A DNA stretch of 64,000 nucleotides, taken from an uncultured Gammaproteobacteria bacterium (GTDB taxonomy: Bacteria > Patescibacteriota > Microgenomatia > Levybacterales > UBA12049). The position numbers were made by a program, and so were the translations under genes. Below are positions 29,994-55,186 of this stretch, one piece after another. Every line of letters starts with the position of its first letter. The first letter of the stretch is position 1. The notes under the pieces were generated by a model. The model worked only from the letters and a program-made list of their open reading frames with translations, did no database searches and was not told where the DNA came from. The stretch lies in assembly GCA_964507055.1 (NCBI GenBank), contig CAZDOJ010000001.1, positions 206,793 through 270,792 of the forward strand. The letters run 5' to 3'.

Positions 29994-30061
29994 AGCGGTA
30001 TTGCTTATTATACTCCATTCTTTTCTTGACTTGCCTGAGCTTATTTCATACTATTAGACTA

Positions 30062-31801: not shown

Positions 31802-31820
31802 ACTACTATTTAACTAGACC

Positions 31821-32888: not shown

Positions 32889-32899
32889 ACAGAATATGT

Positions 32900-34105
32900 A
32901 TGAGACTTTATTACAGAGCAGTAACGCAAGACGGTAAGACAATTCGCGGCCTTATTGAAGCACGTGATATTAAAGAAGCTGCAACGTATCTGCGCAAGCA
33001 CCAACTTGTCCCAGTCAAAATTATCCCTGAAACCAAAACTGGTGTTGCAAAATATTTCCCTTTTTTGAGTAGAACCTCATCGAATGATCTGGTCTTTTTT
33101 ACGAGGCAGCTTTCTTCGATGATTACTTCTGGATTGACACTTATTCAGGCTTTAACCATTTTGAAAAATCAAATGCAAAGCTCTGCAATGACTGAGATTG
33201 TCCAAGCCATTATCTCTGATGTAGAAGATGGAAAGAATTTATCACATGCTTTATCGAAGCATCCACATACATTTTCTCCAATTTATATTGCATTGATCAA
33301 AACTGCTGAATCTTCAGGTCTTTTGGATAAAGTATTGCAACGGTTGGCTGATAATTTAGAAAAAGAACAGCGTTTACAACGAACTATTCGCGGTGCCCTT
33401 CTCTATCCGGTCATTATTTTAATTATGATGTTTGTTGTGACTATTGTGATGATGATTTTCGTTGTGCCACAACTCACAACTATGTATACCAATCTTAATC
33501 TCGAACTTCCAATCACAACACTTATCGTTATCGCGATGTCTGATTTTATTACCAATTATTGGTATATTGTGCTCACGATTATTGCGGCTTCAGCTTATGG
33601 TTTGCATAACTGGTATAAAAAGCCTGCGGGTCGAAAAACGGTTGATGGATATATGCTCAAAACTCCCGTCTTTGGTAAGCTGATGAGTCAAAGCATGATG
33701 GCAGAATTCACACGGACACTTTCTCTTCTTATTACATCAGGGTCGTTAGTTGTGGAATCTCTAAATAAAAGTGCAGACGTGGTCACCAATGTTTTATATA
33801 AAGATGCAATCAATCTTGTCGCCAAACGAGTTGAAAAAGGTATTGATATCGGTGATGCTATGGAAGCGAGTCCACTTTTCCCTCCAATGGTTATCGAAAT
33901 GGTCAAGATTGGCGAACAGACTGGTAAATTGGATGATTCATTGCTCAAAGCTTCAGAGTATTTTGAACGTGAAGTTGAAGAGTCTGTAAAAGTTATGACC
34001 ACACTGCTTGAACCAATTATCATGATTATTCTTGCTTTGGGTGTAGGGTTCTTGATTATTGCGATCATCACTCCGATCTACAATCTTATTTCTTCAATTA
34101 GTTAG
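32900..34105 (+). CDS. pilC: type IV pilus inner-membrane platform protein PilC (GspF family)
   Basis: Duplicated T2SF domain (conserved L..GLTLIQAL and L..G..L..SL segments), three TM helices; 401 aa. Confidence 0.9.
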   Translation: MRLYYRAVTQDGKTIRGLIEARDIKEAATYLRKHQLVPVKIIPETKTGVAKYFPFLSRTSSNDLVFFTRQLSSMITSGLTLIQALTILKNQMQSSAMTEIVQAIISDVEDGKNLSHALSKHPHTFSPIYIALIKTAESSGLLDKVLQRLADNLEKEQRLQRTIRGALLYPVIILIMMFVVTIVMMIFVVPQLTTMYTNLNLELPITTLIVIAMSDFITNYWYIVLTIIAASAYGLHNWYKKPAGRKTVDGYMLKTPVFGKLMSQSMMAEFTRTLSLLITSGSLVVESLNKSADVVTNVLYKDAINLVAKRVEKGIDIGDAMEASPLFPPMVIEMVKIGEQTGKLDDSLLKASEYFEREVEESVKVMTTLLEPIIMIILALGVGFLIIAIITPIYNLISSIS

Positions 34106-34487
34106 CAGGTTGCGTTTCTGAGAGGTATTTTTTAACCTGTTCAATAAGGTCTGCAGGTGTAATATCAGCCTTGATTAAAAATGCGGTAGCTCCTTTTTTC
34201 AACGCGTCTTGTACAAGCGGTTCGTGGTCGAGATTGGTAAGCATGAGAATTGGTCCATTAGGAACAGGTGGCGGGGTTGCCTTGAGTGCATCCATAACAC
34301 CGAGACCATCAATCTTTGGCATCATTATATCCAGAAGGATCATGTCGTAACCGCCTTTGAGGAGTTTATCGAGAGCTTCTTGTCCGTTCACAGCAGTATC
34401 GACATCAAATCCCTCAGTCTTGAGGACTTCTTCGTAGAGCTCCCGGATATACAAATCGTCATCAATAACGATAACTTTTTTTGCCAT
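34098..34487 (-). CDS. stand-alone response-regulator receiver domain (CheY-like)
   Basis: DD...D phospho-acceptor pattern (VIVIDDD ... ILLDIMMPKIDG ... K in LIKAD). No output domain. The internal ATG (MAKKVIV) is preferred. Confidence 0.8.
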   Translation of the reverse strand: MAKKVIVIDDDLYIRELYEEVLKTEGFDVDTAVNGQEALDKLLKGGYDMILLDIMMPKIDGLGVMDALKATPPPVPNGPILMLTNLDHEPLVQDALKKGATAFLIKADITPADLIEQVKKYLSETQPAN

Positions 34488-34632
34488 GTCAACCTGATTA
34501 TCAGGAAATCTGACATTAAAGTCAATAGGACAGTTAAAACGCACAGTTTTGAGGCTACTAATTCTAAGTCAATGTGTAGCGATGAGGTATATTGGTAATT
34601 CTTTTAACATGGTATACTTTACTGTATTTATG

Positions 34633-36021
34633 ATTTTAGACTTTCCCAATAAATTTAAATTTGGAGTGGCGGATGCTGATTTGCAAGTTATAGGAGAAAA
34701 GAATACGCGGCAATACGAAGATTCTGAGCCAACCATGTGGAACGATTTTGCTCGAACATCAGGTAAATGCTATCAAGATGAAACACCCGATATTGGTATA
34801 GATAGATATCATAAATGGCAAGATGATATTGAGATCATGAAAAAGATTGGTATAAAACACTATAGAACATCTGTTTCTATGTCACGTCTACTTACGCGAA
34901 ACGGCGATGTGAATACAAAAGCAGTGCAATGGTATAAGAAATACTTTCGTTCATTATCTCAAGCAGGAATCAAAATTTATGTCACTTTATATCATTGGGA
35001 ACTCCCACAATATCTGAACGAAAAAGGTGGATGGAAAAATAGAGCGACCATTAATGCTTTGCTTAATCATTCTCAATGTGTTGCGGAAAACCTCGGAGAA
35101 TTTATAGAAGAGTATTTCATTCTTAATGAACCAAGGTGCAGTTCTTTGGTAAGTTTCTATTTAGGTGCTCATCCTCCTGGTGAAACAAATTTAAAAAGTG
35201 CTTTACTCGCGGCACATAACTTACTCTTTGCTCAGGGGGTTATTGCAAATTCTCTGATTTCAAAGTACCCAAATATTAAACTTAGTACAGCTATAAATGT
35301 CGGCCCTCGTTATCCTGCTAGTCTTGATGCGAAAGATATTGATGCTGCAAAATTTGTTGATGGACAAAAGAATCTATGGTTTCTGGATCCAATTTTTCTT
35401 GGGAAATATCCAGAATATGTAGTAGATATATACGGCAAAAATATGCCTGAAGTTTCAAGAGAAGATATGGAAATAATCAAAATTGGAAATAAGCTTCATA
35501 GTCTAGGCCTAAACTATTATCGAGGAGACACAGTTAAATATAATTCTAAAAAAGATTTCAATGTGGAAATAATAACAAATAAAAAAGGAGTTTTTAATGG
35601 GTTAGGTTGGCCTGTCTATATGAAACCTCATTATCCTGAAGGATTTTACGATATTCTTTCGCAAGTATATTTCTCCTATAAAGACTACGGGCTAAAAAGA
35701 ATATATATTACTGAGAATGGAATGGCTGAAGAATCCTCATGGGATGGTAAAAGTAAGATTGTTAAAGATGAGAAGCGAGTATTCTATCTGCAGGAACATC
35801 TAAGGCAGATGCATGAAGCACTACATCGCGGAATACCAATCGAAGCATATTTTGCTTGGACTTTGATGGATAATTATGAATGGGCTGAAGGATATAAACC
35901 AAATTCTGCTTTTGGTCTAATTTATATTGATCGAAAAACACAAAAGCGCATATGGAAAGAGAGTGCACATTGGTATAGCAACTTAATTAAGTCAGAAAAA
36001 TTAAACTTAAAGTCTATTTAG
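34633..36021 (+). CDS. glycoside hydrolase family 1 beta-glucosidase/beta-galactosidase
   Basis: GH1 acid/base region LNEP (YFILNEPRC), nucleophile I-T-E-N-G (IYITENGMAEE), TLYHWELPQ. Start chosen at the internal ATG; the track start is a TTG. Confidence 0.8.
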   Translation: MLDFPNKFKFGVADADLQVIGEKNTRQYEDSEPTMWNDFARTSGKCYQDETPDIGIDRYHKWQDDIEIMKKIGIKHYRTSVSMSRLLTRNGDVNTKAVQWYKKYFRSLSQAGIKIYVTLYHWELPQYLNEKGGWKNRATINALLNHSQCVAENLGEFIEEYFILNEPRCSSLVSFYLGAHPPGETNLKSALLAAHNLLFAQGVIANSLISKYPNIKLSTAINVGPRYPASLDAKDIDAAKFVDGQKNLWFLDPIFLGKYPEYVVDIYGKNMPEVSREDMEIIKIGNKLHSLGLNYYRGDTVKYNSKKDFNVEIITNKKGVFNGLGWPVYMKPHYPEGFYDILSQVYFSYKDYGLKRIYITENGMAEESSWDGKSKIVKDEKRVFYLQEHLRQMHEALHRGIPIEAYFAWTLMDNYEWAEGYKPNSAFGLIYIDRKTQKRIWKESAHWYSNLIKSEKLNLKSI

Positions 36022-37261
36022 TACCTTCTATATCTTCCCAAGTTTGACTATTGGGTTGAGATATAAATTGTTGTTTCCCATTCTCTAGGATTACTTCCCA
36101 CTTCTTCATAATAAAAGGTAAAGCATTTACACGCTTTTCGTTATTTCCTGCCCAGTCATTAAGAGACTGCTCCAATATTTCTGGGCCTTGCATAAAGAAT
36201 ACAGCTGGAAGAATAGTTTCAGAATGTTCTTTACTTAAATCAGCGATTTGATGTACCCCCCAAACATATCGTTCTAGCTGTTTTGCTCGTGCCTCGACTG
36301 TAGCTGGACTATATCTCCATGTATATGCTTCCGTAGCAGTCTTTACTTGTTTGCCATCCACAATAGCATTTACCCCAAGTGCAAAATCATCTAATACGAC
36401 ATGAGGTATACCTACATCTTTAACCCATTTTGTATCCCAAGCCATTAAGGCTCCAATTACGACAAGATTTGATTTATTTGTATAACTTGGAAGTAACTCT
36501 CTTGGCGTCATACCCATAATTATCTCTTCAGTTTCTGTATGATCTTTATATCTACCTGATACAACAGCCGTCCCATCTTCTTCTTCAACAATACCTTTAT
36601 ACGCCTCTTTATATAGTTCTGCTATAGCTTTTGGTGTTGGAAAAGAGTTTGCATCGAGACACATACTAATTGGATGGTTATAATAATTTGCTACATCGTT
36701 TCCAATAGTTAAGGCATTTGTTTTTCCAGGCGTAGGAGTATTAATGTGAATAAAACGCATATTATCACTTTCTGTTACAGCATAGTTTTGATCAACTTGC
36801 TTGTCAGAAATATCCTCAGGTAAAATCCCTTCTCGAGATATTCTTTCCTGTACTGCTCCTTGCGTTTGCATGAAATTTCTAACAATTTGCTCACTTGCTC
36901 CACCATCAGTGCAACCATTTGTTACCAATATTATAACTACGTCAGCTTCTGATGGGATGTCTGCTAAAGCTAATGTACCTAATGTTGATTCAAGAAAATT
37001 CTTTTCATTATGAATTGGCATAATAATTGAAAAATGACTGTCCTTGGCTTTAATACCTGTCGTTCTTTCCCATTTATCATTCTGTTCCTCTTTTGCAATC
37101 ACCGCAATGTCTCTTTGACACACTTTTTCACCAGAGATTAATCGATTATTTATTCGATGTGTTACAGCTTGTAAAGAATGTTGCGTCTCTGTTAAGCTTG
37201 CCTCTTTCCATCCGGGAGGATTCTTAGAAAGAAAATATACTGGTGCTGTTTCTTTATTCAT
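36014..37261 (-). CDS. GT2-like glycosyltransferase-domain protein (divergent)
   Basis: N-terminal FSIIMPIHNEKNFLESTL ... VVIILVTNGCTDGG resembles the GT2 NDP-sugar-binding region. The C-terminal half is unassigned. Confidence 0.4.
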   Translation of the reverse strand: MNKETAPVYFLSKNPPGWKEASLTETQHSLQAVTHRINNRLISGEKVCQRDIAVIAKEEQNDKWERTTGIKAKDSHFSIIMPIHNEKNFLESTLGTLALADIPSEADVVIILVTNGCTDGGASEQIVRNFMQTQGAVQERISREGILPEDISDKQVDQNYAVTESDNMRFIHINTPTPGKTNALTIGNDVANYYNHPISMCLDANSFPTPKAIAELYKEAYKGIVEEEDGTAVVSGRYKDHTETEEIIMGMTPRELLPSYTNKSNLVVIGALMAWDTKWVKDVGIPHVVLDDFALGVNAIVDGKQVKTATEAYTWRYSPATVEARAKQLERYVWGVHQIADLSKEHSETILPAVFFMQGPEILEQSLNDWAGNNEKRVNALPFIMKKWEVILENGKQQFISQPNSQTWEDIEGTK

Positions 37262-37374
37262 ATTTTATTTGATTAAAATCTTTGTGAGAAATAGTATTTA
37301 TTACATCTGTAAGATACTGTTAAACAAGAACCCGCTCAATGTGTAACGGTGAGGTAATGTCTCAGAATTTTCAT

Positions 37375-37662
37375 TTATGTTATCGGTATATATAAACCGT
37401 AATAAGAGCTTTCATTTCTTTTTGGAAGCCCAAGTCTTATTCTATGTGCTGCCAAACTATTAATAAGCTCGCGTATTCTGTTTTGTCCTTTACTAATATA
37501 GATGTCATCAATATATTCATATCCCCTACTTGGAGATGTTTTCGGGCTTAATGTAGTATCAAAAATCATATTCGTGTGAATATACATATCGAACATTAGC
37601 ATTGTACTTTGGGTATTTGGGCTTTTCATTGACAGGTGAGTCAATGCTCTTTCTGAGTGCAT
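37375..37662 (-). CDS. small protein, paralog A of a three-member family (IFDTTLSP...RGYEYIDDIY...IRLGLPKRNESSYYGLYIP)
   Basis: Shares motifs with products 39100-39327 and 39345-39575. The true start is likely an internal Met (~75-80 aa). Divergent from the HTH/GAF gene. Confidence 0.45.
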   Translation of the reverse strand: MHSERALTHLSMKSPNTQSTMLMFDMYIHTNMIFDTTLSPKTSPSRGYEYIDDIYISKGQNRIRELINSLAAHRIRLGLPKRNESSYYGLYIPIT

Positions 37663-37704
37663 AAATTAGAATCTAAGTTGTAAGCAGATTATCTGCTTGT
37701 TATA

Positions 37705-38535
37705 ATGCAAAAAATGAATCACTTAGCGTCTGCGTTAAAAGATTACTATACGAAAAGAGACGGTAAGATTATTTTTATAAATAACTGTTCTCTTAATAGA
37801 CTCGCGTTATTGATGTGGGAAGAGCTTCATTTTAGTCAGATCGATGCGAGTGTCCTTTCCAAAGTAATTAACGGCAAAAGACTCTTTACAAATACACAGC
37901 TTGAGGCATTTTGCAAAGTATTAGATATCCCTTCAAAAGAAAAATCTTATTTGTTTTATTGCCTAAATCAAGATTATTGTGATCGATACAATATTTCTTT
38001 GGATGATTACTTCTTATCTAAGGATTCTGTTTTGGAGCTTTTGAGGAAATGTTTGAATGAAATGGTTCAGACGAAACCTATTTTTGATACCCAATTGCCG
38101 CAAATAATTGAATCATTTACGAAGAATATTACTGACACATCTATGAATAGTGTCTATGAAAAAAATGTTTTTGAAGTTCTTGGAACATCGTTATTCTTTA
38201 AGGCGAAACGATTAATTAATTTTAAGCACGGCTCGTTATATATTGCTGATGATGGTACGCTTGCTCGTGTATATGCTTCATCGCCTGTTTTATATAAAGT
38301 CTTTCCAAGACAAACCGGAACTACGATGAGTGTATACAAGCAACAACGTACCTTTACTTTTCCAGCGGATTATATACTGAATTTCCATCCTGAATTAAAT
38401 CAATTATCTATTGGCTCGGATTTGGTGATACCACTTATATACAAACAGAAGACATTTGGAGTTCTTTCGATGCTGTCGGATAAAGATACTACATTTACCA
38501 AAAAGGACATCACTACTCTACAAAATTATCTTTAG
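37705..38535 (+). CDS. putative regulator with weak HTH-like N-terminus and GAF-like C-terminal domain
   Basis: N-terminal ...SVLSKVINGKRLFTNTQLEAFCKVLDI (XRE-like helix pattern, weak). C-terminal ...GSLYIADDGTLARVYASS...VIPLIYKQKTFGVLSM (GAF-like). Confidence 0.35.
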   Translation: MQKMNHLASALKDYYTKRDGKIIFINNCSLNRLALLMWEELHFSQIDASVLSKVINGKRLFTNTQLEAFCKVLDIPSKEKSYLFYCLNQDYCDRYNISLDDYFLSKDSVLELLRKCLNEMVQTKPIFDTQLPQIIESFTKNITDTSMNSVYEKNVFEVLGTSLFFKAKRLINFKHGSLYIADDGTLARVYASSPVLYKVFPRQTGTTMSVYKQQRTFTFPADYILNFHPELNQLSIGSDLVIPLIYKQKTFGVLSMLSDKDTTFTKKDITTLQNYL

Positions 38536-38536
38536 T

Positions 38537-39103
38537 TTATTCTATGGACTCCGTAGCCAAACCTTTTTCCACAAGTTGTCGTATATAAACTGATTTTGGA
38601 AGATTTTTTTTCTTAGAGATGATATTAAGCTTATTTACCATCTCTGTCGGAAAAAGCACATTATACTTTTTATATTTCTGGATGGGATTACATACTAAAG
38701 CTTCCTTCAAAATCTTAAAAAGCGTTTCTTCAGTATATTCGTATATATAGATGTTTTTGTGTAGGTTCAATTGATCTGAAATTAAAACATCTGGTAAAGC
38801 ATCTTTTGATTTAAGCATAATAATCTCCTTTCCTTGTTGTATTGCATTGGATATCTCAAAACCAACATGTACGCTTGGAAATGTGCATTCTGCTATAACA
38901 ATATCGCACTTTCCTAATTTTTTATAAAAGGTATTAAAATATTCGTTTCTCTTCTCGGCTGTCCATGTAACAAGGGTGTTAGCTGTAACAGAAAGTGCAT
39001 GAGTCACAGTATGATCTGAAGATGTTAAAAAATCGATGATATGTGTTAATTCTTGTTTTCTTTGGACATCTATTTCAAGGGGTGCAAGAAAAGCAATTTT
39101 CAT
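38537..39103 (-). CDS. nucleoside 2-deoxyribosyltransferase-like (NDT/DNPH1/SLOG-like) domain fused to C-terminal ribbon-helix-helix DNA-binding domain
   Basis: N-terminal MKIAFLAPL...CDIVIAECTFPSVHVGFEISNA resembles the NDT/DNPH1 active-site D..G..FE.G.A pattern. C-terminal NVLFPTEMVNKLNIISKKKNLPKSVYIRQLVEKGL has an RHH (CopG-like) pattern. Overlaps upstream small paralog B by 4 nt. Confidence 0.45.
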   Translation of the reverse strand: MKIAFLAPLEIDVQRKQELTHIIDFLTSSDHTVTHALSVTANTLVTWTAEKRNEYFNTFYKKLGKCDIVIAECTFPSVHVGFEISNAIQQGKEIIMLKSKDALPDVLISDQLNLHKNIYIYEYTEETLFKILKEALVCNPIQKYKKYNVLFPTEMVNKLNIISKKKNLPKSVYIRQLVEKGLATESIE

Positions 39104-39327
39104 AAATTTGATTCCTTCATTGGGATATATAGTCCGTAGAATGAACTTTCATTTCTTTTCGGCATTCCTAGTCGGATTTCGTTTACTTCCAGAATTTGTA
39201 AAAATTCTCTTGAGCTGTGTCGTCGTTTATCAAGGTATATATCATCAACATATTCAAATCCCCTCTTTTGAGCAGTTGAAGGGCTCAATGTTGTATCAAA
39301 AATAGTATTTGTACTCAATATATTCAT
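39100..39327 (-). CDS. small protein, paralog B (75 aa)
   Basis: MNILSTNTIFDTTLSPSTAQKRGFEYVDDIYLDK...IRLGMPKRNESSFYGLYIP. Translationally coupled to the NDT-RHH gene. Confidence 0.5.
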   Translation of the reverse strand: MNILSTNTIFDTTLSPSTAQKRGFEYVDDIYLDKRRHSSREFLQILEVNEIRLGMPKRNESSFYGLYIPMKESNL

Positions 39328-39344
39328 CCTATTGGATTGTTATA

Positions 39345-39575
39345 TTATTTTTGTTTTGAGCAATACAAACCAAAATAATGTTTTGATGTTTTTTTCGGAG
39401 AACCTATTTTATATCCTTGAGTATTTGCGAATTCTAAAAGCTCTAGAAGTGTTTGGTATAAATTTGGAATATCTTCTATGTGCTGATAACCTTTTTTCAA
39501 TGCGTTTGAAGGAGTAAGCGATGCATCAATCACATCAAGTTCATTCTTTGCAATAATCTGTTCACAGAGACACAT
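39345..39575 (-). CDS. small protein, paralog C (76 aa, more divergent)
   Basis: Same motif order (..D.SLTPSNALKKGYQHIEDI....Y.IGSPKKTSKHYFGLY); sits between the XRE regulator and paralog B. Confidence 0.4.
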   Translation of the reverse strand: MCLCEQIIAKNELDVIDASLTPSNALKKGYQHIEDIPNLYQTLLELLEFANTQGYKIGSPKKTSKHYFGLYCSKQK

Positions 39576-39637
39576 ATCCTGTGAAATTTATATCAAAAGA
39601 ATTTATTTCTGTCAAGTATTTGATAACAAATAATTGA

Positions 39638-40438
39638 TTAAGATGAAAAAAGTTTCTCAGTATTCTTATCGGCAGGATGGTACATAACTAGTTGAAATCT
39701 AGGGTCATTTATAACCTTTGCTGTAGAGACGTGAAAGCTTAGTGTTTGATATTTACCATTATAAGTATCTTGCATCGTTTTATATTCATAATCAAATAGT
39801 TTTTTCCCATAGGTTTCTTGATTTACTTCTGGCCAGAGTTTTCTGAATTCCTCAAATTGCATCAAATCTTTAACCAGATTCTTGTACCATTTTTCATTTT
39901 GATATTGCTCATTTTCTCCTTTAAATGCGGCTATTTGTGCTATCGCAAATGATTTTAAACTATTTTGATCTTCACCTTTCTTAACAATTACAGAAAATTG
40001 TTCTTTAGGAAAAAAAGGAAATGATAAAAAGCTAGGCTTATTTTCGATGATCCATGATAATTGGTTTGGATTCATTTTTGCAGTAAAAAGAGTATGTTTA
40101 TTTGCATATAGCCATCGGAAGCTAAAATCCATTAAATAAGCCGGATATCTCCATGTATCAATTTTTTCTTTAGTTTCTTCTAAAATATTACTGATTTCTT
40201 GTTCTGTCGGTAAATATCCTCCAACGAGTAAAAAATGACCTTTTTCTTGATGTGTTAAATTTAAAGCATTGATAATTCTTTCGGCAGTATCTCTGTTGGG
40301 TTTTCCTACTCGTCCTTGCTCAATCTTTGAGAGACGGCTTGTGTCTTTCCAACCCAAACTTAGTGATAAATCAACTTGAGAAAGCCTTTTCCTTAGCCGA
40401 TAGTCTTTAATTAATCCTCCTAATGTTGCAGTCATCAT
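39638..40438 (-). CDS. XRE-family HTH transcriptional regulator with ~200-aa C-terminal domain
   Basis: N-terminal LGGLIKDYRLRKRLSQVDLSLSLGWKDTSRLSKIEQGRVGKP = canonical XRE helix-turn-helix; 266 aa. First gene of the minus-strand string XRE-C-B-NDT/RHH. Confidence 0.65.
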   Translation of the reverse strand: MMTATLGGLIKDYRLRKRLSQVDLSLSLGWKDTSRLSKIEQGRVGKPNRDTAERIINALNLTHQEKGHFLLVGGYLPTEQEISNILEETKEKIDTWRYPAYLMDFSFRWLYANKHTLFTAKMNPNQLSWIIENKPSFLSFPFFPKEQFSVIVKKGEDQNSLKSFAIAQIAAFKGENEQYQNEKWYKNLVKDLMQFEEFRKLWPEVNQETYGKKLFDYEYKTMQDTYNGKYQTLSFHVSTAKVINDPRFQLVMYHPADKNTEKLFSS

Positions 40439-40487
40439 ATAGCAGCATTATACCTTTTTATAGGTACAAGCACAAATTAAGTGTTTA

Positions 40488-41588
40488 TTGATATTTTTAA
40501 TGCTATTAAATTATACTTATATAGTTATGACAGATAGAGAACCACATGGAGTCGCTATTGAGGGACGGCATAGAATTAAAGAAACTCCAGGTATTGAAAT
40601 AGAAATAAATACAAGTAGTAGAGATCTTTCATTAGCTATTGCGAGTTCGACAATGCTTTTAAAAGAGGTATTTGCTGATGCAGATTCTCAGCTCCCGTGG
40701 CTAAAACAGAAAGAGAGCAATGACCAATTTAGTTCAGACGCCGATATAAAACTTCGGCATGTTCATGGATTGCTCGATGCATATAGTGCTATACACAAAA
40801 GAGATGCCCCCACAAAAAATAGGTTTACAAGTAACTGGGGAATGCATTCGGATTATCTTGAAGCAAGAATCAATCAAATTGACGCAAATGTGGAAGCACA
40901 ACAAGAGAAGCTTTATGAAGAATCTACTAATTGGACCACTCAAGATGAAAGAAAAGTGGTCCGCGATGCTCATAAATTTGCAGCAAATTTAACAAAGGAT
41001 CAAAAAGATATTCTTTATTCTTCAACAGGTTTGTCTCCCGAAAAGGTTAAAGAAAAATTAGGTCGTTGGGGAATTACGGTTGGTGCTAATGTTGCCTCAA
41101 CATATGCATTAGATGGAACTGCAGTCATCGCTGGGCTTGCTTTGACAAAAACAGGTATACAAGAACATGTTAGTACAGAAACACTTATCGGTTTCTTAGC
41201 TGCCAGTTATGGTGTTTGGTTTAAAGGATTATACGAGAACGTGAAAGAAAATTGGAAGCTATTAGAAGAGCAGGGAGTAAGTACGAGTGCTTTATCAAAA
41301 GCGTTCCATGACTATTCTAAGTCTAAAGGGTGGAGTGAACGCTCTCAAAGACTTGCAACGGCTGCCGGTTACGTAGGTTTAGAAATAGCGAAAGAACTTC
41401 CTTTTTATCTTGGAGCATTTGGATCAGCAACATTTTTTGAGGGGATTTCAGATAAGGATGCAATAACTTTCCTTGCAGGTGCGAATATTGGTGGAGGATT
41501 TTATGAGTATACACTTGCAAAAGGTACTAAAATGGCTCGCAAGTGGATGGGGCGAAGAACTCAAAAACCTGAAAGGCCTAGTCGTTAG
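40488..41588 (+). CDS. hypothetical protein with Gly/Ala-rich amphipathic C-terminal half
   Basis: Intact 366-aa ORF divergent from the XRE regulator; no motif recognised. C-terminal ~170 aa rich in G/A/small residues (WGITVGANVASTYALDGTAVIAGLALTKTG...). Start may be the internal MTDREPHG. Confidence 0.4.
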   Translation: MIFLMLLNYTYIVMTDREPHGVAIEGRHRIKETPGIEIEINTSSRDLSLAIASSTMLLKEVFADADSQLPWLKQKESNDQFSSDADIKLRHVHGLLDAYSAIHKRDAPTKNRFTSNWGMHSDYLEARINQIDANVEAQQEKLYEESTNWTTQDERKVVRDAHKFAANLTKDQKDILYSSTGLSPEKVKEKLGRWGITVGANVASTYALDGTAVIAGLALTKTGIQEHVSTETLIGFLAASYGVWFKGLYENVKENWKLLEEQGVSTSALSKAFHDYSKSKGWSERSQRLATAAGYVGLEIAKELPFYLGAFGSATFFEGISDKDAITFLAGANIGGGFYEYTLAKGTKMARKWMGRRTQKPERPSR

Positions 41589-41589
41589 C

Positions 41590-42177
41590 TTATGCGGCTT
41601 TATCTAATTCAATAAGATATTTTGAAATTATTCCTTCTTCAATGTATATCGCTTTAGTATCAGGATCTAATTGTTTAAATCCTTCAATTGTTCCTCTACA
41701 CATAGGGCTTCCACATTGACATTGGAGGCCTTCTGCTACTGGATCATATTCCATAGCTGCATAATCTACTGAAACTTCATCCCCTTTAGGCATATCTTTT
41801 CTTGCAACAACTTCAATTCTGCCCGTGGTCTCTCCTTCTTCTCTTTCAACAATACGAATATATGCAGTTGGATCACAAGAATGGTTGGTAAAATGCCCAA
41901 AACTTGGTGTACCATCAGGATTTTTTGGATCAAGATGCTCAGTTGGACCATATTGGAATGTATATACTGTTGGGTGGTCAAGTATTGGACCGGTGATTGT
42001 GAAGATAACATCGCCTTTATTGATGGGTTCTTTTGCAATAGTACCAAATTGGCCTTCAACCATATTACTCTTAACAACCGTGACAATACCATTATCAGGA
42101 AGCACTCTTTCGGGTGTTCTGCGTTGTTCAGTTAGCTGTGCTGGCTTAGCACTGATTCCTCTTTCAGTCATGAGCAA
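41590..42177 (-). CDS. SET-domain protein (putative lysine methyltransferase)
   Basis: SET signature FTNHSCDPT (NHSC), EVSVDY (ELxxDY-like), post-SET Cys cluster CQCGSPMCRG; 195 aa. Confidence 0.8.
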   Translation of the reverse strand: MLMTERGISAKPAQLTEQRRTPERVLPDNGIVTVVKSNMVEGQFGTIAKEPINKGDVIFTITGPILDHPTVYTFQYGPTEHLDPKNPDGTPSFGHFTNHSCDPTAYIRIVEREEGETTGRIEVVARKDMPKGDEVSVDYAAMEYDPVAEGLQCQCGSPMCRGTIEGFKQLDPDTKAIYIEEGIISKYLIELDKAA

Positions 42178-42183
42178 ATTATA

Positions 42184-43308
42184 CTATAAGATATTAATAT
42201 TTGCAATATGCAAAATAGGTTTGGGAATGGCATGATAATTAGAGTATAGAGAAAACGTATATGCACCGACATTTCTAAAAATAAGCTTATCTCCTGCCTG
42301 TAAGTCTGAAGGCAGAGAAACACGCACAGCTAAAGTATCGTCGGGGTCAAGTGTATTACCTGATATACTAAAAGTTTCTTTTTTACCTGACTTGAAATAC
42401 TCTATGGGATAATTTAATTTACCTCTACTTTCAAGGATTTCAATAAGCCCATGATAAACTCCCATGTCAACAAATAACCATTTATTTTTTATTCGCTGAA
42501 CTTTCCTAGTAATAGTAGTCACAAGCGTTACTGCATCTGCAACAATTATTCTTCCCGGCTCAACCCAAAAAGAAATACCTTTTGGAAATTCTTTGATCTC
42601 TGTGTTTACTACTTCAGCTATATCTTCAATTGGAGGAGATTTTAAAGATTTATATTTAACTGGGAAACCACTTCCGATATTCATAATTCGGAAAGTTGGT
42701 AACGAGTTATAATATCTCCTAAAAATAGCATTACAATATTTAAGAGTAGCTTTCCAGGGCTCAAGTGACATTGTTTGAGAGCCTACATGAAAACTCATGC
42801 CGTAAATATCAATTTTATTTTCAACTGCATAATTTAAAATAACTTCAATATCTTGACTTGATGCTCCAAACTTATCAATATACTCATAGAATGTACCTTC
42901 TGCTGGTGGAAGAATTCTTAAGAAATATTTTTTATTTTGAGCATATTTCATAAGCATTTGAAGTTCCTCTAGTGAATCAAACGTAAAATTTTCTACTCCA
43001 AACTCAATGGCTGACTTAACTGTTGATGGGGTTTTAATGGGATGTGTTAAAAGCACTTTATTTGTATTAATACTTAAGGATTTTAGTATTTTAACCTCTC
43101 CTATAGTAGCCGCATCAAAGAAGCTCCCTTGATCTGCAACTGTCTTTAATATATCGATTTGTGGATTAGTTTTAACGGAGTAGAAAGTTTTAAACTTAGG
43201 AAATAGCTTTTTAAAAGCAGAATAATTACTGTTAATCTTGTTAAGATTCAGTATATAAAAAGGAGTTTTTTTATCCCTAATAAAAGCCGCGAGCTCCTGC
43301 GACGCCAT
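42184..43308 (-). CDS. PLP-dependent decarboxylase of the Orn/Lys/Arg/DAP-decarboxylase (alanine-racemase-fold) family
   Basis: PLP-Lys motif FYSVKTNP, FHVGSQ, EPGR. The expected C-terminal G-P-T-C-D motif reads SGNTLDPDD, i.e. Asn at the usual catalytic Cys position. Confidence 0.65.
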   Translation of the reverse strand: MASQELAAFIRDKKTPFYILNLNKINSNYSAFKKLFPKFKTFYSVKTNPQIDILKTVADQGSFFDAATIGEVKILKSLSINTNKVLLTHPIKTPSTVKSAIEFGVENFTFDSLEELQMLMKYAQNKKYFLRILPPAEGTFYEYIDKFGASSQDIEVILNYAVENKIDIYGMSFHVGSQTMSLEPWKATLKYCNAIFRRYYNSLPTFRIMNIGSGFPVKYKSLKSPPIEDIAEVVNTEIKEFPKGISFWVEPGRIIVADAVTLVTTITRKVQRIKNKWLFVDMGVYHGLIEILESRGKLNYPIEYFKSGKKETFSISGNTLDPDDTLAVRVSLPSDLQAGDKLIFRNVGAYTFSLYSNYHAIPKPILHIANINIL

Positions 43309-43405
43309 TTTTGTAGTATATCTTATATTCTTTCAAAATAAAATATAGTATATTGACATTTATTATGAAAAAGGGAACAATGAGTTTAGTCTTATTCTTT
43401 AAAGT

Positions 43406-44212
43406 ATGCATCTTACAAAGGTTGCTAAATTTGTTTTAGGTTATTATATTTTTATCCTCATTTGGTGGACTTATTCCTATTTCTTTAATCTGCACGAAAA
43501 TCCATATAGCTTTATCTATCAGTTTGCATTTGGTTTAATTCCTTTGTTAGGAGGAATTGCAGGAATAATAAGATCAGCGAAATGGGGAATGTTTAAAAGT
43601 AAAGTTGGAATGGCATTATTTTTCATTTCTATGGGTCTCATAACTTGGGGCATTGGGCAAATGTTTTGGTCACTTTATTATAATTGGCTTATGCAAATTG
43701 AAATACCATATCCCTCACTGGCAGATGTTGGCTACATACTTAGCTGGCCTCTATGGACTATTGGTACTATAAATTTGTCTTATGCAACAGGTGCGAAGTT
43801 CTCTTTAAAAAATATTAGAGGAAAAGTACTTCTTTTTACTTTACCTGTTCTACTTATATCTCTTTCATATTACCTTCTTATTATTGTTGCTCGTCAAGGT
43901 TTATTAAGCGATTTTGAAGGTGGGGCATTTAAAGTATTTTTTGATCTTGCTTACCCAATTGGAGATGTTGTTATACTTGCTCTTGCTGTACTCGTTTATG
44001 GTCTGTCTTTCAACTATATTGGGGGAAAGTTTAAATGGCCAATAATAATGATTTTAGTGGGTTTTCTTGTAAATTATATTGTTGATTTTTCGTTTTCTTA
44101 TACAACTACCAATGGAACTTATTTTAATGGTCATTGGGTTGATATACTTTTCCCAACAGCAATGGCTTTAATTGCCTTTGGTGTTAATAGCTTTGATACT
44201 AAAGATAGTTAG
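43406..44212 (+). CDS. hypothetical polytopic membrane protein (about 8 TM)
   Basis: Very hydrophobic 268-aa ORF with aromatic-rich helices; no soluble domain. Confidence 0.45.
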   Translation: MHLTKVAKFVLGYYIFILIWWTYSYFFNLHENPYSFIYQFAFGLIPLLGGIAGIIRSAKWGMFKSKVGMALFFISMGLITWGIGQMFWSLYYNWLMQIEIPYPSLADVGYILSWPLWTIGTINLSYATGAKFSLKNIRGKVLLFTLPVLLISLSYYLLIIVARQGLLSDFEGGAFKVFFDLAYPIGDVVILALAVLVYGLSFNYIGGKFKWPIIMILVGFLVNYIVDFSFSYTTTNGTYFNGHWVDILFPTAMALIAFGVNSFDTKDS

Positions 44213-44257
44213 ATGAGGTTGATAATTCTCCCAAATCTGATATAAAAGAAGCGAGGC

Positions 44258-44542
44258 GTGGATATGGATATATATTCGGAATTAGCAAAAAAAATAATAA
44301 GAGAACAAGAATCTATAATAGGTCCTGTAGCTTTAGAACAAGCTCGTAAAGTTAGTGGACTTATTATTGATGGTGATGCTGAAAATATTACATTTAATGG
44401 CAATAAAAAAGAGATTATAGAAAATTTAGTAAAGCAGTATGAACATCTTTTTGGGCTAACTTCTGTAGAAGTTTGCCGAGAAGCAGTAAAAAGTCTTATT
44501 TCTCAGGCACCAAAAGATGATGTTCCACAAGTACTTCTGTAA
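44258..44542 (+). CDS. hypothetical small protein (94 aa)
   Basis: Intact ORF between the membrane protein and the histidine kinase, same strand; no motif. Confidence 0.3.
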   Translation: MDMDIYSELAKKIIREQESIIGPVALEQARKVSGLIIDGDAENITFNGNKKEIIENLVKQYEHLFGLTSVEVCREAVKSLISQAPKDDVPQVLL

Positions 44543-44569
44543 AAAGAAAAATTCTGCTACATTTAATAT

Positions 44570-46018
44570 ATGAATTTTATTGATTCTTTAAGGACTTTCC
44601 TTGGTTTTTCTACGGTTACTAATAAAGATCAAGCATCTGATGAGTTGTCTCATATAAATCAAGAGATGTACAAGAAGAGTGCTGAGCTATCCGAAAAAAA
44701 TAAAACCTTATCATTGTTACAAAATATTAACGGCCTTATTTTAAGTTCTATTACACATCCAGATGAAATTGCAACTCAAGTTACAAAGGTGCTTGTAACA
44801 GAGACTGACTTCAACATTGCATCTATTTATCTCTATGAGAAAAATAGTAACTCTTTAAAACGACTTGCACGAGCATACCTTGATATTAACAATACGCTTT
44901 ATTCCCAATCGGCATCTAAACTTGAGTTGCGACTCGATAATACTGAAAACTTAGTTATACAATCAATCACAAAAAGAGAAGTACTTTATTCTAACTCTCT
45001 TGATCGGATAGTAATTGAAAAAATTGAAGAGAATGTAGATATAAAAACTGTATTTATATCCCCACTGATAGTAAGAAAAGATCTAATAGGTGCCATTGTT
45101 ATCGGTATGAATGATCCACAAGAAACGATTTCTGAATATAGACATGCTTTATTGAGTCAACTAGCTGAGTTAGTAGGTATTGGTATTGATAATTCTTTGC
45201 TCTATAATGAGGTACAAAACGCTAATGAGAAATTGAAGGAATTGGATTTGTTAAAGAATGAATTCGTTTCTGTGGCTTCGCATGAACTTCGTACACCTAT
45301 GACCGCTATCAAATCATATCTCTGGATGGCACTAGAGGATCGTGGAGGGAAGTTAAATGAGAAACAACGGTATTACATCCAACGAGGATATAATTCTGTC
45401 GATCGATTAATACGCTTGGTCAATGACATGTTGAATATCTCTCGTATTGAAGCTGGTCGTATCACAGTAAATATGCAAGCCGTGGATCTTGAAGCATTGG
45501 CTCAGGAAGTTGTTGATGAAGTCCAACCTCGTGCCAAGGAAGTTGGTGTTACTGTCACCATCTCCAAGCATGAAGCGTTGCCTCACGTGCTTGCTGATCC
45601 CGATAAGATAAAAGAAGTGTTCTTCAACTTGATTGGTAATTCCATCAAATTTACTCCGAAGGATGGGACAGTGGTTGTTAATTTCACTGAAAAAGATGGA
45701 TTTATCGAAACACAAATTGTCGATACTGGAAGTGGTATTGAGGCTGAAGATATTGGAAAGCTTTTCCAAAAGTTTGGGCTTATGCCTGGATCATATACAA
45801 CTAATCAACCAGCCATGGGTACTGGACTTGGTTTGTACATCTGCCGCTCAATTGTGGAACTCCATCAAGGAAAAATCTGGGCGGAATCTGATGGACGAGG
45901 AAAAGGGGCGACATTTACTTTCCAGTTAAAGAAGTTTACCAAGGCTGATCAAGAGCAATATAACCAAAGCACTGCAAATAGTAAAGAAGACGTTGGATTG
46001 ATCCACAGTGAAATTTGA
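44570..46018 (+). CDS. cytoplasmic GAF-domain sensor histidine kinase
   Basis: GAF-like N-terminal region (...IASIYLYEKNSNSLKRLARAY...LIGAIVIGMN), H-box FVSVASHELRTPMTAI, N/G1/G2 boxes (LIGNSIKFTP, IVDTGSGI, GTGLGLYICRSIV); no TM. Confidence 0.85.
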   Translation: MNFIDSLRTFLGFSTVTNKDQASDELSHINQEMYKKSAELSEKNKTLSLLQNINGLILSSITHPDEIATQVTKVLVTETDFNIASIYLYEKNSNSLKRLARAYLDINNTLYSQSASKLELRLDNTENLVIQSITKREVLYSNSLDRIVIEKIEENVDIKTVFISPLIVRKDLIGAIVIGMNDPQETISEYRHALLSQLAELVGIGIDNSLLYNEVQNANEKLKELDLLKNEFVSVASHELRTPMTAIKSYLWMALEDRGGKLNEKQRYYIQRGYNSVDRLIRLVNDMLNISRIEAGRITVNMQAVDLEALAQEVVDEVQPRAKEVGVTVTISKHEALPHVLADPDKIKEVFFNLIGNSIKFTPKDGTVVVNFTEKDGFIETQIVDTGSGIEAEDIGKLFQKFGLMPGSYTTNQPAMGTGLGLYICRSIVELHQGKIWAESDGRGKGATFTFQLKKFTKADQEQYNQSTANSKEDVGLIHSEI

Positions 46019-46060
46019 TGCACAAGAGTTCGATATCTGCTATAGTTTGTATATAGTTAG

Positions 46061-46085
46061 ATCCTTCGACTTCGCTCAGGATGAC
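46061..46085 (-). repeat. copy 1 of a short intergenic repeat gtcatcctgagcgaagtcgaaggat (read on minus strand); overlaps the pilD ATG
   Basis: Same 25-mer, with a 10-nt GAA-pentamer-like insertion, recurs on the plus strand at 60538-60580. Confidence 0.4.
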
Positions 46086-46929
46086 ATATATGATAATTCC
46101 GTTCTACCTCTTTATTTTCCTTTTAGGTACAATAGTCGGAAGTTTTCTTGGAGTTGTCGCAGACAGAGTAGCCAATAACGAATCTATATGGCGAGGACGT
46201 TCTCATTGTGATCATTGTCGACATAAGTTGGCTTGGAATGATCTTATCCCACTTGTTTCTTTCCTGATGTTGAAAAGACAATGCAGATATTGCCACAAAA
46301 AACTTGATTGGAATTACTTTATCATTGAAGTCATCACAGGAGTATCTTTTGTGCTTGCGACATATGCTCTCTTTCAAGATAGTTTGGCGATTTTCTTTGG
46401 ACTCCAATATATTTTGGTACTCCTCTACTACTTCGCAATTATTAGCTCTTTAATTGCAATTGCATTCACTGATCTAAAATATGGCATTATTCCTTTTAAA
46501 GTTGTAGCCGTTGCAGTGGCTATCGCTGTCTTTTGGTTTTTCCTTTTTCCTGGATTGTATATTACACCACTCGAAGCGACAGCACTTGGTTTGCAAACTG
46601 ATATTTTGAATTTAATCGCTTCAGGATTTGGGGCTGCACTGTTCTTTTTTGCATTGTTTTATATTACTAAAGGGAGAGGGTTGGGTTTTGGGGATGTAGT
46701 ATATGCCTTCTTGATGGGACTTATTTTAGGTTTTCCAAAAGTAATTCTCGCACTGTACTTAGCTTTTGTAACTGGTGCGATTGTTTCACTTGTACTCATC
46801 CTTGCCAAAAAGAAAAAATTTAAAGGTGGAACAATTCCTTTTGGCCCCTTTCTTGTTACAGGGACGATTATTAGTTTGCTTTGGGGAAATATGATTATCG
46901 ATTATGCGAGGCGATTTGTGGGATTGTAA
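46081..46929 (+). CDS. pilD: prepilin peptidase / N-methyltransferase (A24 family)
   Basis: N-terminal Zn-binding CxxC...CxxC (CDHCRHKL...CRYCHKKL), catalytic Asp-containing TM core, 8 TM. Confidence 0.9.
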   Translation: MTYMIIPFYLFIFLLGTIVGSFLGVVADRVANNESIWRGRSHCDHCRHKLAWNDLIPLVSFLMLKRQCRYCHKKLDWNYFIIEVITGVSFVLATYALFQDSLAIFFGLQYILVLLYYFAIISSLIAIAFTDLKYGIIPFKVVAVAVAIAVFWFFLFPGLYITPLEATALGLQTDILNLIASGFGAALFFFALFYITKGRGLGFGDVVYAFLMGLILGFPKVILALYLAFVTGAIVSLVLILAKKKKFKGGTIPFGPFLVTGTIISLLWGNMIIDYARRFVGL

Positions 46930-46965
46930 GTTACGAGTTGAAATTTCATACGTCAGGTGCACATA

Positions 46966-47484
46966 ATGAAGTATATGCAAAAAGGATTTACATTGGTCGA
47001 AATGCTTATCGTTCTTGGGATCGTAGGAATTGTGGCGACGATGCTCATTGTTGGTATCAATCCGCTCGATCAGATCCGTAAATCAAGTGATACAGATCGT
47101 AAGTCAGATATCGCACAATTACAAAAAGCATTGGAGTTATATTATCAGGACAACGGTAGTTATCCTCCTTCATCAGCAGATTACAAATTATATATCGGGA
47201 CAACAACATTGGCGTGGGGTACCGCTTCATGGCTTCCGTATATGAGTAAATTGCCAAAAGATCCTAGCCCACAGCGTTCGTATGTATATTATGTCCCAGC
47301 GTCATCAAATGGACAAACCTATTATATTTATAGTAGTTTAGAGAGAGGGGCAAAGGATCCACAAGTATGTAACGCTGGCAACGCTTGTGTTAGCATCACA
47401 GCTGGTGTGGCTGGATTCCCCACTGCAGCAGCATGTGGATCAACATGTAATTACGGAGTTTCGAGTCCAAATGTTTCACCATGA
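46966..47484 (+). CDS. type IV pilin (class III signal peptide)
   Basis: Leader MKYMQKG followed by FTLVEMLIVLGIVGIVA (G|F cleavage site, Glu+5); C-terminal Cys pair. Confidence 0.8.
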   Translation: MKYMQKGFTLVEMLIVLGIVGIVATMLIVGINPLDQIRKSSDTDRKSDIAQLQKALELYYQDNGSYPPSSADYKLYIGTTTLAWGTASWLPYMSKLPKDPSPQRSYVYYVPASSNGQTYYIYSSLERGAKDPQVCNAGNACVSITAGVAGFPTAAACGSTCNYGVSSPNVSP

Positions 47485-47924: not shown

Positions 47925-47963
47925 AGTTGAAACTTGTGAGCAGAACGATGATAATGGACATAG

Positions 47964-48455: not shown

Positions 48456-48456
48456 T

Positions 48457-49451: not shown

Positions 49452-49496
49452 CCGATTGACACTACCTCTACAGCTTGTTACGATAAATACGGAGCA

Positions 49497-50318: not shown

Positions 50319-50319
50319 T

Positions 50320-51886: not shown

Positions 51887-51888
51887 CT

Positions 51889-54800: not shown

Positions 54801-54801
54801 T

Positions 54802-55179: not shown

Positions 55180-55186
55180 TACGATA

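Follow-up and report, generated by a model that had tools for sequence, protein, structure and literature searches.

The 64-kb stretch of DNA analyzed here (the window; all coordinates refer to it) comes from a Levybacteria (Patescibacteria/Microgenomates) genome and carries a type IV pilus gene cluster in which pilB, pilT, and pilC are separated from pilD, the pilin-like genes, and pilMNO by about 10 kb of AT-rich DNA. A preliminary description, made from the sequence alone, had read this DNA (34549-44560) as one acquired accessory segment splitting the cluster. We characterized the genes of the segment and compared the locus with those of related genomes; loci of relatives are labeled L and their proteins P, each with a number. 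The flanks, the tract between them, and the genes at its right-hand end are as follows.

30026-31801 (pilB), 31821-32888 (pilT), and 32900-34105 (pilC), plus strand: left flank; Pfam T2SSE/MshEN, T2SSE, and T2SSF, respectively.
34098-34544, minus strand: receiver-only response regulator (RR); Pfam Response_reg, 86.5 bits, residues 24-137 of 148; no output domain.
34541-45220, no strand: tract without homology to the closest relative in blastn (the hotspot as delimited by comparison), from the intergenic region between RR and the glycoside hydrolase family 1 (GH1) gene to the junction of sensor and kinase core in the histidine kinase gene.
41590-42177 and 42184-43308, minus strand, 6 bp apart: SET methyltransferase (Pfam SET, 45.9 bits) and pyridoxal phosphate (PLP) decarboxylase-like enzyme (Pfam Orn_Arg_deC_N, 156 bits; Orn_DAP_Arg_deC, 50 bits), respectively.
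43406-44212, plus strand: mem268, an 8-helix membrane protein; putative detached transmembrane input domain of a sensor kinase.
44258-44542, plus strand: sm94, a conserved cytoplasmic-domain protein of approximately 92 aa (94 aa here); putative adaptor piece of the split sensor.
44570-46018, plus strand: soluble GAF-HisKA-HATPase histidine kinase (HK); Pfam GAF_2, HisKA (70 bits), and HATPase_c (88 bits).
46081-52632, plus strand: right flank, comprising pilD (46081-46929), five pilin-like genes, a gene for a 273-aa protein, pilM, pilN, and pilO; Pfam A24 peptidase, N_methyl/T2SSG, and PilM_2.

Boundaries of the variable tract

Between pilC and the segment lies the RR gene, which the preliminary description had overlooked. 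The likely true start of this gene is the ATG at 34487, giving a product of 129 aa, and the receiver residues (DD, D, T, and K) are present in the motifs DDD, LLDIMMP, LTN, and LIK. At 129 to 148 aa, the protein is a receiver only, with no AAA+ or DNA-binding domain, and is thus not of the PilR type. The HK carries an H-box (SHELRTP) and a HATPase_c domain and the receiver has its phospho-acceptor Asp, as expected for a kinase and a response regulator of two-component systems.

The closest relative is OZ246394.1, whose locus was covered by joining L003 and L092. As revealed by blastn, the two genomes share approximately 80% nucleotide homology at 29320-34540 and again at 45221-52574, and the 10.7 kb in between match only at 38562-38907 (in the gene h188) and 39402-39577 (in sm76), about 520 bp in total. 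Amino acid identities on the left flank are 93% for PilB, 98% for PilT, 93% for PilC, and 93% for the RR; on the right flank they are 81 to 94% for PilD, the pilins, PilM, and PilN, 87% for PilO, and 90% for TrmD. The HK falls into two parts, with 10 to 25% identity to the HK of the closest relative over the first ~240 aligned columns versus 82 to 100% thereafter. From this drop in identity over the sensor half and the match of the core, the variable tract was set at 34541-45220: the sensor half of the HK (44570-45220) falls within the tract, and the conserved right flank starts with the kinase core (45221-46018). The right edge had originally been placed at 44560 with the HK outside the segment; the breakpoint against the closest relative is instead at 45221, inside the HK gene, and the HK is part of the module described below. 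In the closest relative, the N-terminal half of the HK is a different one, and the gene is preceded by that of a soluble 355-aa protein instead of mem268 and sm94. Judged from these alignments, the sensor half of the HK appears to have been swapped by a past exchange at the domain boundary.

An alternative sensor arrangement was observed at L092:8890-11521 and in L010 and L012, where a soluble, Pfam-less protein of 338 to 379 aa is followed by an HK of approximately 506 to 511 aa. The HK of L092 has one N-terminal transmembrane segment and no GAF match, and its kinase core is still orthologous.

We considered whether the interruption could be an assembly artifact, i.e., a chimeric join of two contigs, given that L002, a contig obtained from a different sample, breaks off within the RR gene, right at the segment edge. 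However, the same layout was found on at least nine contigs from several samples and sequencing runs, with lengths that include 293 kb and reach 1.3 Mb; both junctions are spanned, and the probability of an artifact is regarded as negligible. Among these conspecific contigs, the content of the hotspot is invariant.

The interruption in related genomes

A PilC scan with one genome per species yielded 80 loci, the close ones being labeled Levybacteria or Levyibacteriota; the window proteins were mapped onto these loci and all of their open reading frames (ORFs) were clustered. The synteny comparison covers 40+ Levybacteria relatives, and 12 genomes have both boundaries on one contig. Three architectures were found. 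In outgroups and in some lineages, pilC and pilD lie 6 to 770 bp apart, with or without a pilin gene between them. In one clade, pilC is followed by a pilin gene, a gene for a TMEM260-like GT-C glycosyltransferase (with or without a PMT_2-like protein), and pilD. In a large clade, to which the window belongs, the order is pilC, RR (minus strand), a variable region, HK (plus strand), and pilD, and the RR gene adjoins pilC throughout, forming the left boundary of the hotspot. In a neighbor-joining tree of PilB, PilT, and PilC, calculated without support values, loci with the contiguous layout branch basally.

The pilC-pilD gap of the window, at 11,976 bp, is the widest among the compared loci, and RR-to-HK gaps range from 1.7 to 10 kb. 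About every second ORF in the gaps of relatives is a singleton (31/61). Cargo elsewhere includes NUDIX, HD, dTMP-kinase-like, DUF1846, OmpR-type, HbpS-like, PfkB, IMPase, SHMT-like, and EamA proteins, and further LPG-synthase-C, SBP_bac_3, and NB-ARC proteins; no integrase was seen among the cargo of the relatives' gaps. Since the same split occurs with differing content across the clade, it is an old, lineage-wide feature of the pilus cluster, and what varies is the fill. The accessory nature ascribed to the inter-pilus DNA is therefore borne out, for every related genome carries a different content there and the gene order of the segment is not conserved across the lineage.

What is not borne out is its acquisition as one segment, that is, as a single 10-kb genomic island that entered once and later lost its mobility genes. 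Almost none of the segment is present in the locus of the closest relative, and its GC content, among the lowest of any 10-kb stretch of the window, with strongly reduced GC at third codon positions (GC3), would fit an island. Nevertheless, the interruption is found at the same place throughout the large clade, filled with 1.7 to 10 kb of different cargo each time; the right third of the segment is a conserved module that occurs at this very position in eight loci of relatives (L086, L094, L096, L021, L022, L029, L031, and L017); and h188, sm75, sm76, and HTH266 have counterparts in L003, L004, and L007. Synteny across the clade thus largely refutes a single island, which we consider very improbable.

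A fixed position, with pilC and RR on the left and HK and pilD on the right in 12 genomes, combined with high turnover is what characterizes a hotspot. We favor, at a probability of roughly 0.65, the reading that the tract is an old, integrase-free hotspot of gene turnover, situated between an RR gene and a sensor kinase gene inside the pilus cluster, and that its fill is composite.

In the sister clade with the second architecture, TMEM260-like GT-C proteins of 660 to 690 aa are encoded after the pilin gene in the pilC-pilD gap (L024:11823-14971, L027, L028, L030, L035, L036, and L042), and in some of these genomes a PMT_2-like mannosyltransferase gene follows. These are candidate genes for pilin O-glycosylation. 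In L094 (from the same metagenome-assembled genome as L004), a toxin-antitoxin (TA)-like pair, consisting of genes for a PIN_3 protein and a protein of 91 aa, is inserted between HK and pilD (L094:3247-3924), indicating that the right-hand junction accepts insertions as well.

Base composition and marks of mobility

The GC content of the full window is 0.382, with 0.341 at 34549-44560 versus 0.390 in the remainder. Among 540 sliding 10-kb windows, the segment is one of the 10 lowest in GC, the minimum being 0.338 (start at 35101). Composition is therefore not uniform along the window, and the lower GC reported for the DNA between the pilus blocks was confirmed. The 13 ORFs inside the segment have a mean GC3 of 0.236 against 0.32 for the other ORFs (Mann-Whitney P = 2e-5), whereas GC at second codon positions is about the same in both sets (P = 0.47), which makes the shift a synonymous one. 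The tetranucleotide signature of the segment deviates too, but that of the conserved pilin block at 45-52 kb deviates equally, so the signature does not discriminate the segment.

Low GC is a general property of this position. In all 22 relatives examined, the gap is poorer in GC than the pilus core (mean, -0.043), and in 17 of 18 it is AT-richer than upstream nonpilus DNA. Within the window, GC3 of the module genes (0.223 for mem268 and 0.116 for sm94) is equal to or below that of the species-specific cargo, and the mem268 and sm94 orthologues in L086, L094, and L096 are likewise below the pil genes in GC. Because the gaps of all 22 relatives and the long-resident module genes are AT-rich, low GC is no mark of recent import; it tracks accessory and regulatory genes of the lineage generally and cannot serve as a clock.

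Neither Pfam nor PHROGs detected an integrase, recombinase, or transposase domain in the 13 ORFs of the segment, in line with the preliminary description, and a coding fraction of 95.5% leaves no space for a decayed integrase or transposase. No tRNA or tmRNA gene was found in the entire 64-kb window, and Rfam at gathering thresholds gave no match. Direct repeats or tRNA fragments had been suggested as possible marks at the two edges; scans for direct and inverted repeats over 33.5-46.5 kb returned internal paralogue repeats and chance-size matches, none of which brackets the segment. PHROGs matches among the segment proteins were confined to helix-turn-helix (HTH) domains, with no phage families. 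Scans for promoter-like sites (52 versus 53 expected from shuffles) and terminators (12 versus 7.9 expected) were uninformative. Set against a classical genomic island, the segment shares the biased composition and has neither the integrase nor the tRNA or direct repeat, and composition does not discriminate here, since the same bias is common to all relatives' gaps and to resident genes. The missing mobility marks, the dense coding, and the shared low GC all argue against a single island. A prophage or an integrative and conjugative element remnant was also considered and dropped.

Two other places in the window vary among relatives. A second, more extreme AT-rich patch (53436-55591, plus strand; GC, 0.26 to 0.30) lies between trmD and the KH/rpsP genes and holds a 454-aa DUF8370 protein and ORFs of 125 and 134 aa. 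In relatives this slot is occupied by a 771-aa AAA_13 protein (L092), a DUF433 and DUF5615 pair (L094), or a 117-aa ORF (L096), and it looks like another variable spot. In the major facilitator superfamily (MFS) tandem upstream of the pilus cluster, the second copy (28053-29285, minus strand) lacks an orthologous counterpart in the closest relative, whose only copy is the first (86% identical), and represents a small gain or loss.

Sensor module at the right-hand end

Metagenomes were scanned with a mem268 alignment, which yielded at least 491 loci, and gene-content features were counted from 80 of them. As a result, sm94 was found directly 3' of mem268 in 61 of 62 loci, and an HK gene lies within 4 kb of mem268 in 25 of 29. 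A gene for the decarboxylase and/or the SET protein is located upstream in 23 of 45 loci, and one for an EamA transporter in 14 of 45. Pilus genes are present in 5 of 30. The sm94 family, with 338 cluster representatives, has a mean column identity of 63%.

Three kinds of natural fusion connect these genes: a mem268-like domain with a GAF-HK (L086, L127, L116, P0162, P0167, P0197, and P0261), mem268 with sm94 (nine cluster representatives), and sm94 with a kinase core (four). These fusions link mem268, sm94, and the GAF-HK as what we predict to be a split sensor kinase. In L086, one of the eight loci with the module in the pilC-pilD position, the order (pilD, HK, 91-aa, and 268-aa genes on one strand, and the decarboxylase and SET genes diverging from them) mirrors that of the window, and the decarboxylase is 66% identical. 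A divergent SET-decarboxylase pair beside mem268, sm94, and HK also occurs in L089 and L097; that of L089 is a fused protein, adjacent to 268-aa, 92-aa, and hybrid HK genes with no pilus genes nearby.

Receiver-only RRs of 125 to 132 aa are encoded directly 3' of the HK in several module loci that lack pilus genes. This order supports pairing the HK of the window with its RR, and the two may well be cognate partners across the gap.

The mem268-like domain is not restricted to kinases. NB-ARC (STAND) NTPases of approximately 765 aa, encoded in the gaps of L017 (13433-15730), L086 (11641-13935), and L096 (899-3205), carry a C-terminal mem268-like domain with 36 to 42% identity, so that kinases and STAND NTPases share the same membrane domain. 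Pfam at E ≤ 1 returned nothing consistent for mem268 on ten homologues, and PDB sequence profiles gave nothing significant for mem268, sm94, or h366. An AlphaFold2 (AF2) model of sm94 (pLDDT, 77) had no informative structural match. The mem268 model is of low confidence (pLDDT, 58), and its best structural matches, 7-transmembrane (7-TM) bundles, are suggestive only.

The two enzymes divergent from mem268 are themselves unusual. The decarboxylase family is small, with 29 matches at E ≤ 1e-20, and the window protein scores under the cut-offs of all NCBIfam equivalogs. Four members (P0127, P0128, P0130, and P0131) are single proteins of 539 to 544 aa in which decarboxylase and SET are fused in the gene order of the window. 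As in the fold-type III PLP decarboxylases acting on ornithine, diaminopimelate, or arginine, both Pfam domains are present, the PLP lysine context is recognizable (YSVKTNP aligns with YAVKAN), and HVGS and EPGR are retained. The window enzyme differs from these decarboxylases in having Leu in place of the Cys of GPTCD and in lying beside, or elsewhere being fused to, a SET methyltransferase. The Cys-to-Leu change was found in all 13 SET-linked members (P0121 to P0133), which read G(N/F/W)TLDPDD, with GNTLDPDD in the window protein; all 14 EamA-linked decarboxylases have Gly (GPTGD), and the canonical relatives P0135 to P0149 retain Cys. The EamA- and SET-linked loci compared include L097, L116, L118, L145, and L148. 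In ornithine decarboxylase, C-alpha is protonated by the GPTCD cysteine acting as general acid, and mutation of this residue diverts the reaction. The substitution suggests that the Cys-less PLP enzyme forms a nonstandard product. In the SET protein, the motifs NHSC (at 98), DEVSVDY with the Tyr (at 133), and CQCGSPMC with the post-SET cysteines (at 153) are intact.

In the limited set of literature searched, no description was found of a SET-decarboxylase fusion or of the mem268-sm94-HK module. Together with the Cys-less PLP enzyme and the SET protein, this widespread module is previously undescribed.

Species-specific cargo and the minus-strand operon

The remaining genes of the segment are listed below. 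Pfam and NCBIfam agree with the gene list first given for the segment (GH1, GT2-like protein, SET protein, PLP decarboxylase, membrane protein, and small ORF), and the coding strands alternate as stated there.

34549-36021, plus strand: GH1 beta-glucosidase-type glycosidase; Pfam Glyco_hydro_1, 370 bits, full length; start at 34609 (470 aa) according to gene callers.
36014-37261, minus strand: glycosyltransferase family 2 (GT2)-like protein, with weak Pfam Glyco_trans_2_3/Glycos_transf_2 matches; convergent with GH1, 8-bp overlap.
37375-37662, minus strand: sm95, paralogue of sm75 and sm76; includes a 194-nt repeat with 70% identity to 39119-39312.
37705-38535, plus strand: 276-aa protein with a C-terminal GAF domain (HTH/GAF protein); Pfam GAF_2/GAF.
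38537-40438, minus strand: four-gene operon of HTH266 (39638-40438; Pfam HTH_31/HTH_3, XRE family), sm76 (39345-39575), sm75 (39100-39327), and h188 (38537-39103).
40488-41588, plus strand: h366, a 366-aa hypothetical protein with a Gly/Ala-rich hydrophobic C-terminal half.

The GH1 protein has the catalytic glutamate motifs LNEP (at 193) and ITENG (at 387). It scores 395 bits against the NCBIfam BGL model, under the equivalog cut-off of 478.5, and the match thus does not fix its specificity. Homologues number in the thousands, and the best 120 (50 to 81% identity) include proteins of Gottesman-, Davies-, Woese-, and Levybacteria. With Microgenomates proteins as nearest homologues, a GH1 enzyme is not the unexpected function it had been taken for. 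Comparatively broad glycoside hydrolase repertoires have been described for Microgenomates, and GH1 has been recorded in another phylum of the candidate phyla radiation, Harrisonbacteria (PMC5581439).

One rival explanation is that the inserted genes are functional pilus accessories, with GT2 and GH1 modifying pilins or a pilus glycan and the regulators tuning expression, and that they are retained by coregulation. Consistent with this, TMEM260-like and PMT_2-like GT-C proteins are encoded next to a pilin gene in the same gap of the sister clade, the sensor operon is codirectional with pilD and 27 to 62 bp away from it, and RR and HK bracket the region. However, a convergent GH1-GT2 pair (77% nucleotide identity; GH1, 81% at the amino acid level) also occurs on L177 without RR or pilC, a 60% GH1 homologue on L091 sits beside hexokinase, aldolase, FBPase, and PGK genes, the cargo of relatives is metabolically miscellaneous and mostly unique, and the sensor module itself is mostly found away from pilus genes. 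We thus regard a pilus-accessory role of the cargo as improbable. For the sister clade, its GT-C genes still speak in favor of such a role.

Upstream of GH1 on L177 is an ORF weakly homologous to h366 (27% identity; pairwise E = 1e-6). A rearranged h366-GH1-GT2 block was considered on this basis and dropped, the evidence being a single weak match on a 2.6-kb contig. Searches of Pfam, NCBIfam, PADLOC, PHROGs, and PDB returned no match for h366; the protein, first described as G/A-rich, is indeed Ala/Gly-rich, but mildly so (A, 9.8%; G, 7.7%). No homologue of the 276-aa GAF protein was found in any relative's gap, and at this locus it was seen in this species only. No family match was obtained for sm95 in the Pfam, PADLOC, and PHROGs searches. 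Together with sm75 and sm76, it belongs to a group of small proteins (95, 75, and 76 aa) without family that have one or two copies in relatives; in some conspecific contigs sm95 is called as 64 aa.

Comparison with relatives indicates that the regulator operon at 38537-40438 is semiconserved and fast evolving. Genes for h188, sm75, and sm76 are also present in L003 and L004, and HTH266 is present in L004, L007, L097, and L100. Identities to the closest relative are 69% for h188, 49% for sm75, and 63% for sm76, versus approximately 92% for the flanks. The N terminus of h188 weakly matches DNPH1/Rcl (nucleoside deoxyribosyltransferase fold; E = 0.003) and its C terminus matches RHH_3 at 16.3 bits, below the cut-off of 21.6. 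In the closest relative, h188 adjoins NUDIX, HD, dTMP-kinase-like, and DUF1846 genes, a neighborhood that hints at a nucleotide-centered function.

These genes had initially been called a TA-like cluster, a designation that found no family support: Pfam, NCBIfam, and PADLOC revealed no toxin or antitoxin family, and what remained was the XRE HTH domain and the subthreshold RHH_3 match. A broader version of the idea holds that the gap is a conflict or defense island of immunity, TA, and STAND systems, with the small paralogues and h188 as such a system. It draws on the recurrence of NB-ARC STAND NTPases in the gaps of L005, L013, L017, L086, and L096, on the PIN_3 pair of L094, on the fast divergence of h188, sm75, and sm76 relative to the flanks, and on the nucleotide-hydrolase-like and RHH hints in h188. 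On the other side, PADLOC, run on ten proteins, detected no defense family, its matches being confined to HTH266 (a weak HTH model and weak Cas11/Csa5-like matches, which we read as HTH cross-matches); PHROGs likewise found HTH matches only; the NB-ARC proteins carry the mem268-like domain and so may be relatives in signaling; and much of the cargo is plain metabolism. A defense island is accordingly an unlikely reading of the gap.

Discussion

We propose that an ancestral contiguous cluster (pilB-pilT-pilC, with or without a pilin gene, then pilD, pilins, and pilMNO) was entered between pilC and pilD by a two-component module in the ancestor of a large subclade. The RR gene reads away from pilC, and the sensor-kinase operon into pilD. 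Between these two divergent units, genes would have been gained and lost over a long period at a persistent hotspot, of which the 10-kb segment would be the current fill in this genome, the largest seen. Three layers may be distinguished in it: the widespread conserved module at 41590-46018, in which the Cys-less PLP enzyme and SET genes diverge from mem268, sm94, and the GAF-HK; the XRE HTH, two small paralogues, and the DNPH1-like/RHH protein at 38537-40438; and GH1-GT2, the third small paralogue, the HTH/GAF protein, and h366, which would stem from the Microgenomates gene pool.

Turnover most likely proceeded by double homologous recombination in the conserved flanks following DNA uptake, with one breakpoint at the sensor/core junction of the HK. 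Natural competence through ComEC, with DNA integrated by flanking homology, has been reported in Saccharibacteria (PMC10633639), and many hotspots of horizontal gene transfer (HGT) lack mobility genes, recombine in flanking core genes, and are overrepresented in transformable species (PMC5635113). The low GC would reflect the AT-richness of accessory, probably weakly expressed genes of the lineage and no recent foreign origin. For the module, we envisage that a signal, which may be an amine derivative from the adjacent enzymes, is perceived by the membrane domain, that the PLP enzyme and SET protein make or modify this signal, and that sm94 acts as the adaptor through which the GAF-HK would phosphorylate the RR. 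Rather than binding DNA, the RR would then contact another protein, plausibly the pilus motor, whose genes are adjacent.

Several observations weigh against this proposal. The RR-to-HK layout is patchy, with L029 and L031 sitting near lineages in which pilC and pilD adjoin, and on such a distribution, with a tree that carries no support values, one gain with losses is indistinguishable from several gains. Recombination in the flanks is deduced from a comparison among different species (~80% nucleotide identity) with content fixed within this species, so no recent exchange event is visible. The pairing of RR and HK is read from gene neighborhood, the mem268 model has a pLDDT of 58 with generic helical-bundle matches, and the scarcity of pilus genes at module loci (5/30) makes pilus regulation by the module a conjecture.

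A farther-reaching alternative is that PLP enzyme, with or without SET (or an EamA exporter), mem268, sm94, HK, and RR form a self-contained small-molecule circuit of Patescibacteria, in which an exported amine or aldehyde signal is sensed and the output to the pilus motor acts as a density or host-contact switch. We consider this circuit conceivable though doubtful.

Our preferred hotspot reading places the tract beside the mobile-element-free HGT hotspots of Oliveira et al. (PMC5635113), which it resembles in its fixed position bounded by conserved genes, its many singletons, and the lack of integrase, transposase, and tRNA. It differs in that species or genera, instead of strains, were compared here, with content fixed within this species, and in being nested in a two-component module inside a pilus operon. 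As a hotspot, the region is ordinary in its class; the added value lies in the sensor module.

Variable inserts in pilus clusters are also known from Pseudomonas aeruginosa, where the pilA-tRNA(Thr) region carries the group-specific accessory and glycosylation genes tfpO and tfpW to tfpZ. Both loci have a lineage-specific insert within the pilus cluster, and the insert of the sister Levybacteria is a GT-C gene beside a pilin gene. Unlike the P. aeruginosa region, the window has cargo mostly unrelated to pilins and no tRNA, and the insertion is between pilC and pilD and not beside the major pilin gene.

With respect to signaling, HK and RR genes in or next to the pilus genes recall PilS-PilR, and the RR is a single receiver like PilG, PilH, and CheY, which act by protein contact. 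In contrast to PilS-PilR, the window has neither an NtrC-type PilR nor a PilS-like fused 6-TM kinase; its kinase is a soluble GAF protein with a separate 8-TM partner and a 92-aa adaptor, and components of the Chp/CheA type are absent from the locus. The 7TMR-DISM-type receptors are polytopic membrane input modules of bacterial signaling proteins, and the mem268-like helical domain is comparable in its modular pairing with an HK or an NB-ARC NTPase and in its 7-TM bundle matches. It is distinguished from them by the lack of a Pfam match, by eight predicted helices (in a low-confidence model), and by being usually a separate gene followed by that of a dedicated small protein.

Taken together, these results indicate that small Patescibacteria genomes can keep stable sites of gene turnover without mobile elements. 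The hotspot fits a competence-plus-recombination route to new genes, and competence has been shown experimentally in this phylum (PMC10633639). Although neither mem268 nor sm94 belongs to a Pfam family or has a relative of solved structure, both proteins are abundant among Patescibacteria of groundwater and soil. Pili are essential for epibiotic growth in Southlakia epibionticum, the one Saccharibacterium tested by transposon sequencing (PMC10633639). The module is a testable candidate for signal sensing by host-dependent bacteria, and in Levybacteria it is sited where control of pili is possible; if the small-molecule circuit outlined above were to hold, its output to the pilus motor would provide an episymbiont with a density or host-contact switch.

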